From a virus (Duplodnaviria; Heunggongvirae; Uroviricota; Caudoviricetes): a stretch of DNA of 13,756 nt. The stretch lies in the IMG/VR virus record IMGVR_UViG_2874945390_000001, positions 1 to 13,756 of that record. One strand, given 5' to 3'. The notes below the pieces were generated by a model. That model was not told the DNA's origin and searched no databases. It saw only the letters and a program-made list of their open reading frames with translations. The translations under genes were made by a program, and so were the position numbers. Position 1 is the first letter of the stretch. Every line of letters begins with the position of its first letter. Below, piece after piece: positions 10,896 to 11,824 of the stretch.

Positions 10896-11241
10896 TGTAT
10901 CGCCTCGATTGTCAGCGGGGTCCTAATCCCGGCACCCGTTTTATAAGGTGCACGCGAATCATAGCCTTGGCTGGCAGTGGCGATCAACTGGTTTTTCATA
11001 CCCGCTTTATTCAGGTTGTGCGAGTCCCGCCCTTGCAGGTGTGTGGTATGATTTAACATAGCTACCTCGATACTGTTGCTATCGTTGGTGGTTAGACGCC
11101 CTGCATGTGTTGCGAGCACTGCGGGGCGTTGCTTAATTTGAGTGACAAAACTCAAACTGTGCGCACATGTCAATACTTAACATCTCATTTTTTTTGCTGT
11201 ATTGTGTGCGCCCATAAAGTCCATTTAAGTGAGGTGCATCA

Positions 11242-11439
11242 ATGTCTAGCGGTAACACAAACAACAAATCAGCAAAGAAAAATATTCGATTCCCACATGG
11301 GCTTATAGATGGGGTTGATGCTAGCGTTGAACAAGAAAAATTAACTAATCCTAGTGCTAATTTTTCCGCATGGGTCTTAGATGCCTGTGGACGCAAATTA
11401 AAATATGAACAGCGCCGGAAGGCCAAAGAATCAGAATAA
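11242..11439 (+). CDS. YlcI/YnfO-family (DUF3950)-like small protein
   Basis: 65 aa with RBS GAGGT 5 nt upstream. Motif KNIRFPHGLIDGVDASVEQEK....NFSAWVLDACGRKL matches my recollection of the DLP12 prophage YlcI pattern (NIRFP...NFSAWV..AC). Confidence 0.55.
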   Translation: MSSGNTNNKSAKKNIRFPHGLIDGVDASVEQEKLTNPSANFSAWVLDACGRKLKYEQRRKAKESE

Positions 11440-11496
11440 TCACTATCAGCGCCGTGGCGTGAGGTGCTACGGCGCATTGCTTTACAGGTACACACA

Positions 11497-11676
11497 ATGA
11501 CCAACAAAGAATCAACCAATACACCATCGCAAAAAACGAACAGAGAGCACGAAAATATGGCGCTCGAGCATGAATCAGAAAGATTCGCACCATGTGCTTT
11601 TGCCCTTGAGCAATTCCTTAAAGAGTACAGGGAAACGCGCTCATTGCAGGTATGGCAACGAACTGAACCAGACTGA
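11497..11676 (+). CDS. Hypothetical small protein (59 aa), second gene of the plus-strand pair
   Basis: ATG at 11497 follows AGGT at about 8 nt (alternative GTG at 11464). Followed by a strong plus-strand terminator. No family recognised. Confidence 0.4.
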   Translation: MTNKESTNTPSQKTNREHENMALEHESERFAPCAFALEQFLKEYRETRSLQVWQRTEPD

Positions 11677-11771
11677 TTGCATTGCCCACCAGCCTGATAG
11701 CGTCTATCATCCCCGTGCTTATGTTTGGGATCACATACACATAAGGCGCAGCGGGTTAATTGTTCAGAAAG

Positions 11772-11798
11772 GCGGCTCCATATCGGGGCCGCTTTTTT
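11772..11798 (+). terminator. Rho-independent terminator ending the plus-strand YlcI-like unit
   Basis: Stem GCGGCTCC (11772-11779), loop ATATC, stem GGGGCCGC (11785-11792, one G-U pair), then T6 (11793-11798). Confidence 0.7.
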
Positions 11799-11824
11799 CG
11801 TGTTTGTCATATCTGTGATACCCG

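Follow-up and report, generated by a model that had tools for sequence, protein, structure and literature searches.

In the immI region of phage P22, two repressors with the ribbon-helix-helix (RHH) fold and an antisense RNA control ant (PMC2629481). Phage satellites of the Gram-negative phage-inducible chromosomal island (PICI) kind are described as unidirectionally transcribed, with AlpA as an activator and with no known global repressor (PMC11773190, PMC6092414, bioRxiv 2022.09.08.507074). Here we describe the control region of a satellite island in a 13,756-nucleotide stretch of DNA (positions 1 to 13,756 of IMG/VR record IMGVR_UViG_2874945390_000001, hereafter the window), where a 65-residue protein of the YlcI/DUF3950 family is encoded divergently from a leftward early operon. 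We propose, with a probability of about 65%, that YlcI is a Mnt-like RHH protein that would bind operators at the early promoter of the satellite (PL), repress it, and also regulate its own gene. DNA binding, repression of PL, autoregulation and the loss of PL activity in this particular copy are all inferred from sequence.

The arrangement resembles that of Mnt in P22 immI, as a small repressor gene lies divergent from the operon that it would control, with operators over the target promoter and over its own. The two systems differ in other respects. YlcI has no significant homology to Arc or Mnt (hhalign probability 5.9%), and three operators at fixed distances of 23 and 47 bp are found here instead of one Omnt or Oarc. 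The operon facing the repressor gene carries icd-like and primase genes in the satellite rather than the antirepressor of the phage, and no second, Arc-like repressor was seen. By analogy, the switch may be regarded as a Mnt/immI-like design layered on an immunity of the P1 type, with c4 RNA and icd.

The ylcI-like gene occupies 11242-11439 on the plus strand. An initial annotation of the window had listed this gene together with a 59-residue plus-strand gene (ORF2, 11497-11676), and both reading frames were found. It had also proposed a profile search for DUF3950, which was run and came out positive, with 26.8 bits for PF13132 (cut-off 25) and 55.1 bits for the NCBIfam model YlcI_YnfO_N, NF041551 (cut-off 30). 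PF13132 is matched by all 30 aligned homologues as well. The protein also matches PHROG 949, which carries no assigned function, and no function for YlcI/DUF3950 was found in Pfam, PHROGs or the literature searched, an earlier description elsewhere being possible. Its 75 homologues are 52-95% identical, with named sources in Escherichia, Klebsiella, Serratia, Citrobacter, Salmonella, Dickeya, Pectobacterium, Rahnella, Hafnia and Sodalis, and they share two invariant motifs, I-R-F-P and N-F-S-x-W-V-x-D-A-C.

A putative β-strand, K12-K13-N14-I15-R16-F17-P18, is followed in YlcI by helices at residues 19-32 and 41-63; the AlphaFold2 (AF2) model likewise has an extended N-terminus and then two helices. 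The best structural matches of this model are RHH regulators, namely CopG, omega, ParD, TacA and the N-terminal domain of MazE. When the protein is aligned with Arc by hhalign, AKKNIRFPHGLIDGVDAS is placed on PQFNLRWPREVLDLVRKV, bringing N-I-R-F-P over N-L-R-W-P. Profile matches to RHH_1 (1 of 30 members) and to a HicB-like antitoxin (8 of 30) all stay below threshold. A sequence search of the PDB with the 65-residue protein returned nothing relevant, and Foldseek against the PDB was uninformative. The protein thus looks like a predicted RHH-type (Arc/MetJ/CopG-like) DNA-binding protein, and the RHH fold suggested in the initial annotation holds at the fold level of the model, not as sequence homology to a named RHH family. 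A defence-system reading of the ylcI region was dropped, as PADLOC gave no defence match for YlcI, ORF2 or an 83-residue reading frame on the minus strand of the island.

Control regions were compared among related loci that all encode relatives of the 65-residue protein; 43 of them came from genomes sampled once per species, and 50 came from IMG/VR. The gene is present in 91 of 97 sequences (96 loci and the window), and the sources include Serratia, Klebsiella, Rahnella, Pectobacterium, Xenorhabdus, Brenneria, Gilliamella, Orbus and IMG/VR contigs. Operators were located via a GTCAA anchor, with L075 and L090 excluded and L081 lacking the anchor, and promoter motifs were counted in 65 non-redundant loci.

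The plus strand of 91 loci shows a single order. From left to right there are a GC-rich hairpin and its T-rich tail, in many cases a short inverted repeat, operators O1 and O2, GTCAA, a T-rich stretch, TAT(A/T)GT, operator O3, and then the Shine-Dalgarno (SD) sequence and ATG of ylcI. Each operator is a 12-mer with the pattern GTG-N6-CAC. O1 and O2 are 23 (rarely 24) bp apart, and O2 and O3 are 46-47 bp apart (47 bp in the window), with the O2 position filled in all related loci. Read on the minus strand, the GTCAA directly after O2 is a −35 element, TTGAC in 62 of the 65 non-redundant loci; in 56 of the 65, a TAnnnT hexamer lies about 18 nt further downstream. An independent promoter scan of a Gilliamella locus (L031) returned TTGACG-18-TATAGT, with 10 of 12 matches. 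The rightward ylcI promoter (PR) was found by promoter scan in the window and in a near E. coli relative (L045), and the TAT(A/T)GT just before O3 is conserved.

Placed on these promoters, O2 fills the PL spacer, O1 in the relatives abuts the PL −10 and covers the start site, and O3 abuts the PR −10 and start, a geometry of repeated cognate sites over the cores of both the target promoter and the gene's own. O3 shares on average 8.05 of 12 positions with O2, compared with 9.88 of 12 for O1. In 38 of 56 operator triples, O3 exceeds O1 and O2 in degeneracy and falls behind them in palindromic symmetry. The exact palindrome is absent outside the control region in the 5-8 kb of the related loci.

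In the window, O2 is the perfect palindrome TGTGCGCACA at 11158-11167 (12-mer core cTGTGCGCACAt), exactly where the initial annotation had reported it. It lies in the PL spacer and adjoins the −35 hexamer TTGACA (11168-11173, minus strand). O3, TGTGCGCcCA at 11205-11214, has one mismatch to the O2 palindrome, is located at the −10 and start of PR (TTAACA-17-TATTGT, 11177-11205, plus strand) and is presumed to be the autoregulatory site. The second, partial copy noted earlier does exist, although its string GTGTGCGC sits at 11204-11211 and had been given one base off. The same small shift applies to the inverted repeat TTTGAGT-N6-ACTCAAA, which truly lies at 11137-11156, directly left of the operators (−6.8 kcal/mol, z-score −2.8). 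The idea of a small autoregulated switch is borne out in part: operators lie on divergent promoters, and O3 on the gene's own promoter fits autoregulation, but the main target appears to be the leftward PL with its −35 at 11173-11168.

Two palindrome copies in 13.7 kb are, taken alone, not remarkable. With at most one mismatch, the window holds 2 matches against 0.64 expected, and 25 of 200 shuffles reach 2. The operator observation exceeds chance because about 90 related loci have their operators at the same positions. The 20-nt inverted repeat would occur 0.01 times by chance in the window and is not a copy of the operator sequence. Inverted repeats are also seen left of O1 in many relatives, such as L004, L011, L012, L029, L031 and L079, with a sequence that differs in each, for example CCTTGA..TCAAGG, CTTGAG..CTCAAG and CCTAATAA..TTATTAGG. 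The repeat could be the 5′ hairpin of the PL transcript, or a site for a second co-varying protein such as AlpA. Incidentally, an extended −10 at PR was considered and dropped, as in the window and L045 the TG is directly adjacent to the hexamer and not one base away.

The proteins and their sites vary together. While the outer GTG/CAC is common to all loci, the central six bases change in step with the four residues before I-R-F-P. AKKN, as in the window, goes with GTGTGCGCACAC, having a GCGC centre; xYKG goes with GTGTTTAAACAC, TTKG with GTGCACATACAC, ATKK with GTGCGGCCACAC, AKKH with GTGTG(A/C)ACCCAC, KRKD with TGTCCGCACA, and DRKA with GTGT(A/G)GGCACAC. Among 67 non-redundant protein/O2 pairs, the O2 operator distance correlates with the distance at residues 11-14 (Mantel r = 0.565). 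Controlling for the remaining residues of the protein leaves a partial r of 0.543, a value that 0 of 5000 permutations reached; those remaining residues show no independent correlation of their own (partial r = 0.03, reached in 1093 of 5000 permutations). DRKA and KRKD proteins that are 100% identical after IRFP have different operators, and proteins that are only 55-59% identical but share AKKN, or share TTKG, have the same operator.

In Arc and Mnt, base-contacting side chains occupy alternate positions of the N-terminal β-strand. The hhalign register puts the corresponding positions at K12, N14 and R16 of YlcI. R16 is invariant, as is the outer GTG/CAC, and positions 11-14 vary, as does the operator centre. 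This covariation argues that YlcI specifically recognizes GTG-N6-CAC sites.

One of the three operators has been lost from the window. Its nearest E. coli relatives, L045 and L046, read ...ACTCAAAC-TGTGCGCACA-GATTAAAATCATG-TGTGCGCACA-TGTCAAT..., and relative to both, the window is short of exactly one operator (O1), the spacer GATTAAAATCATG and the PL −10, 23 bp in total. In the alignment the deletion junction falls at 11157-11158, the exact point being ambiguous within the repeat. O1 is kept in all 15 further close IMG/VR relatives (L047-L061). What remains of PL in the window is TTGACA followed at 17 nt by TTTTGT in place of TAnnnT. Because the deletion took O1 and the PL −10, PL is probably inactive in the window; ylcI, PR, O2 and O3 are intact. 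Another relative, L059, has an extra 23-bp unit (2371-2426 of that locus), making three tandem TGTGCGCACA copies and four operators when O3 is included. This gain is the reciprocal of the 23-bp loss in the window, and therefore operator number evidently varies both ways by unequal exchange between the direct repeats.

We conceive of the intact switch as follows. YlcI dimers would bind the 12-bp GTG-N6-CAC operators at both divergent promoters. With O1 and O2 filled, PL would be shut and the icd-like, DUF4222 and primase genes would stay silent. At higher YlcI concentration the weaker O3 would be filled too, which would limit YlcI synthesis and hold its level steady. If the residues just before I-R-F-P set base specificity, different satellites would carry repressor/operator pairs that do not cross-react. 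As for induction, a helper could, speculatively, flip the switch through transcripts that run on from an induced alpA promoter, which would oppose ylcI as antisense and continue into the early operon. Alternatively, a helper protein might inactivate YlcI, as with Stl.

Several observations weigh against this proposal. The AF2 model, of moderate confidence (predicted local distance difference test score of 71), covers a monomer and so does not extend to the predicted β-ribbon. The hhalign match to Arc, in the expected register and with an E value of 0.0064, has a probability of only 5.9%. Shared ancestry among related sequences can inflate a covariation test, and the pairing has one exception, ATKG, which is found with one operator in L065 and a different one in L092. 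The PL −10 of the E. coli relatives is weak (TAATCT), given which PL may need an activator there, and we infer the sign of regulation at PL only from operator position. Further downstream, the minus strand carries a promoter-like site, TTGATC-18-TATGAT at 10987-10958, from which transcripts would begin where the isrK match has its 5′ end (10951). Were this promoter real, the isrK and C4 RNAs described below could seemingly be transcribed independently of the YlcI-controlled PL. Because isrK seems to own a downstream promoter, part of the leftward operon may escape the switch.

Another factor might bind the repeats instead, for example AlpA or a protein of a helper phage or of the host, in which case the match between YlcI and the operators would reflect tight linkage only. 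AlpA is an experimentally established regulator of Gram-negative PICIs (PMC6092414, PMC11773190), YlcI binding is a prediction, and the separate inverted repeat at 11137-11156 varies between loci. However, operator identity follows four YlcI residues and not the rest of the equally linked gene, those residues sit where RHH proteins carry the base-contacting strand, and an RHH-like fold suits short palindromic or tandem sites, so we hold this explanation to be quite improbable. It is also conceivable, if unlikely, that YlcI does bind the operators but regulates in the lytic phase, like Cro or Arc, turning down or adjusting early transcription once induction has begun, or serves as an activator, with maintenance left to the C4 and isrK RNAs and to the absence of AlpA. 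An RNA-based immunity is indeed already in the element (C4 twice, isrK and c4-a1b1, with C4 loops matching icd SD sequences), and P22 immI has both a maintenance RHH protein (Mnt) and a late-acting one (Arc) (PMC2629481). PR resembles an ordinary σ70 promoter. On the other hand, ylcI has its own transcription, apart from the induced operon, from a promoter that by its sequence needs no element-encoded activator, which is the arrangement of the maintenance repressors Mnt, CI and Stl. Activation is argued against by the position of O2 inside the PL spacer and of O1 on the −10/+1.

A different role for the pair of plus-strand genes would be that of a type II toxin-antitoxin-like system, with YlcI as an RHH antitoxin autoregulating through the palindromes and ORF2 as the toxin or partner. 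ORF2 is confined to E. coli, and ylcI mostly occurs alone; the two genes are 57 nt apart with a hairpin between them, and two of the three operators lie on the divergent promoter and not on the unit's own. Searches of ORF2 against Pfam, NCBIfam, PHROGs and PADLOC gave neither a family of known function nor one of toxins or defence proteins. This reading was rejected, because ORF2 is not co-inherited with ylcI and a conserved downstream toxin was not found; we consider it very improbable.

ORF2 is nevertheless a real gene, because its homologues differ by indels of whole codons around a conserved core, EHESERFAPCAFALEQFLKEYR. There are 30 homologues, all in E. coli and 53-91% identical; 27 of the 30 have 57-67 residues, and the three outliers have 41, 64 and 100. 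ORF2 matches PHROG 21027, a family without an assigned function, and its AF2 model consists of two helices, which is too simple for a meaningful fold search. At residues 11-23 (11527-11565), the window and its closest homologue have SQKTNREHENMAL, where most homologues have an arginine-rich stretch, SPARKRRRRKI; by this comparison the basic arm is lost or replaced in the lineage of the window. In other genera, either no plus-strand gene follows ylcI or unrelated cargo does, such as a 113-residue SWIM-like reading frame or frames of 92 and 306 residues. The two-gene unit of the initial annotation is thus a feature of the E. coli lineage, with ylcI alone or next to unrelated cargo elsewhere.

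Between ylcI and ORF2 lies a GC-rich hairpin (11449-11475, plus strand; −21.4 kcal/mol, z-score −1.9) with a weak T tail, possibly a partial terminator or attenuator. The strong terminator that had been described at the end of the unit was found at 11766-11798 on the plus strand, with 14 pairs, a T6 tail, −21.7 kcal/mol and a z-score of −4.7, compared with only −14 kcal/mol on the minus strand. This intrinsic terminator closes the ylcI-ORF2 transcript and is placed between the convergent ORF2 and alpA genes, 27 nt from the end of alpA.

Another conserved element of the control region, which the initial annotation overlooked, is a GC-rich hairpin (11096-11129) that together with its T-rich tail (11096-11140, plus strand) has the form of an intrinsic terminator. 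The stem is present in every related locus and covaries across 41 diverse ones, where RNAalifold and pair counts found 94% of cells paired, compared with 35-54% in slid controls. Double changes occupy 78 cells, compared with 26.5 in shuffles, and 0 of 500 shuffles were as high. On the plus strand, 66 cells (summed from per-pair counts) are G-U or U-G. Because these would be A-C mismatches on the minus strand, the hairpin is selected in plus-strand RNA. The region 11055-11145 folds with −40 kcal/mol (z-score −4.5).

The first leftward gene has its SD and its ATG (11059) immediately to the left of this hairpin. At the start of that gene there is a −10-like element on the plus strand, a candidate extended −10 TGgTATGAT in the window (11044-11052), TGgTATAAT in L045, and TTGCCC-17-TATCAT in L031. 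Rfam has no match at this position. The arrangement suggests a candidate unannotated cis-antisense RNA of about 80 nt (about 11059-11140), directed against the icd-like leader, SD and ATG. In P22, the sar antisense RNA is likewise against the translation start of the first gene.

The first leftward reading frame, starting at ATG 11059 on the minus strand behind a strong SD (GAGGT), has about its first 17 codons in common with an Icd-like gene of L045 (2794-3000 of that locus) and then runs into the isrK promoter region. By this comparison it looks like a recombination mosaic that truncates an icd-like gene. Beyond it, the minus strand encodes Rfam RNAs, all above threshold, namely isrK (10951-10875), a first C4 (10850-10763), c4-a1b1 (10488-10439) and a second C4 (10371-10284). 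Together they form a duplicated RNA immunity module (10284-10951) in which isrK, C4 and an icd-like gene are followed by c4-a1b1 with a weak isrK, C4 and an icd-like gene. In either C4, the loop and the SD of the cognate icd gene downstream are complementary (AAUCAAGGAGG and CAAGCAAAGGAG), and the tandem modules may represent two different immunity specificities. Targeting of the PL leader by C4, at the SD of the frame starting at 11059, was rejected, as the duplex energy of −42.6 compares with a shuffle mean of −43.7.

A Pfam match to the 'Ash protein family' (residues 71-165 of a 243-residue frame, 10442-11173, minus strand) lies over the isrK and C4 genes, at 10763-10963, and several PHROG 'transcriptional repressor/regulator' matches also overlie the isrK and C4 RNA genes. 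Ash and such PHROG families may have been partly built on translations of conserved RNA genes.

To our knowledge, no divergent DUF3950 or RHH gene with operators on the early promoter is present in P1 or P4, and unlike in those phages, the protein switch would be an additional layer here. The RNA part of the locus is like the immI of P1 and P7 (c4-icd-ant) and the CI RNA/seqA of P4, having two C4 RNAs, isrK (a relative of seqA) and c4-a1b1, and then Icd-like genes. The order of int, alpA (vis), early promoter, RNA immunity and primase is also that of P4 (PMC10111431).

In the Stl/Rpr systems of Staphylococcus aureus pathogenicity islands and Gram-positive PICIs, the repressor gene is divergent from the satellite's excision/replication operon and near int, as here, where we propose a role in quiescence. 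Stl is, however, unrelated and much larger, and its derepression by helper proteins has been demonstrated, whereas YlcI has no known helper interaction. YlcI is also like the RHH regulators of plasmids and toxin-antitoxin systems (CopG, omega, ParD, TacA and MazE), which are small dimeric autoregulators acting on short palindromic or repeated sites. Unlike them, it has no conserved toxin or partition partner, it stands in another context, and its sequence similarity to them is at noise level.

K-12 YlcI (prophage DLP12) and YnfO (Qin) belong to the same family, and the former shares N-I-R-F-P ... N-F-S-A-W-V with the window's protein. Unlike in the window, K-12 ylcI (L097, NC_000913.3 580251-580445) lies between lysis/bor genes and cos/nohD in the lambdoid prophage DLP12. 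It was rejected as a second example of the switch, as O1-O2-GTCAA-O3 is absent there and CATCTAC repeats are found upstream instead. Because the site and the upstream sequence of the DLP12 gene differ, the YlcI family occurs in at least two genomic contexts.

The window as a whole is an integrated phage satellite of the Gram-negative PICI, capsid-forming PICI or P4-like kind. When compared with the PICI layout (PMC10111431, bioRxiv 2022.09.08.507074), it has int, alpA and primase in the same orientation, C4 and isrK RNAs and captured head genes, with no tail or lysis genes. On the minus strand, the integrase is frameshifted into two overlapping frames (12860-13756 and 12507-12956), the AlpA-like gene (11825-12031) stays below threshold in Pfam and matches an excisionase/regulator PHROG, and a primase-family frame spans 6301-7905. 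The minus strand of the island also holds the two Icd-like genes, DUF4222, SSB, and the head protease, decoration and major head genes (672-2500). The island is decaying, as it has been hit by an IS66-family element with three reading frames (3403-6038; 243, 115 and 334+165 residues, the last split) and an IS3-family element (7976-9132; 100 and 272 residues), in addition to the split integrase.

At least part of 11060-11830 is matched in 1798 of 5426 complete E. coli genomes, with 80% or more covered in 36. By blastn, the same segment has zero matches among 50,697 phage records, and therefore by this test the ylcI unit is not a phage region. The control region of ylcI recurs in many other Enterobacterales and in Orbales. 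The gene order of primase (−), ylcI (+), alpA (−) and int (−), whole or partial, recurs across genera in many related loci.

RHH repressor/operator switches are already well known as a kind. What appears to be new is the assignment of DUF3950/YlcI to such switches, the fixed plan in which the early promoter of a Gram-negative satellite carries three operators, and the table relating residues to operators. More tentatively, and with considerable doubt, we suggest that DUF3950/YlcI proteins could fill the vacant role of master repressor in a large class of Gram-negative satellites (PICI, capsid-forming PICI and P4-like elements with icd and primase). The four-residue code would then define exclusive immunity groups, the three-operator switch would be the trigger point for helper phages or convergent alpA transcription, and the antisense RNA would add a third layer of control over a toxic icd.

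For the window itself the message is more modest, as this copy belongs to a decaying island whose early promoter is probably lost. For the family, the analysis supplies a testable candidate that comprises a protein, its operators, two promoters and a table of residue-to-base recognition. If true, the switch would provide a set of small orthogonal repressor/operator pairs, and it would explain both how these islands stay silent and how different islands coexist without repressing each other.

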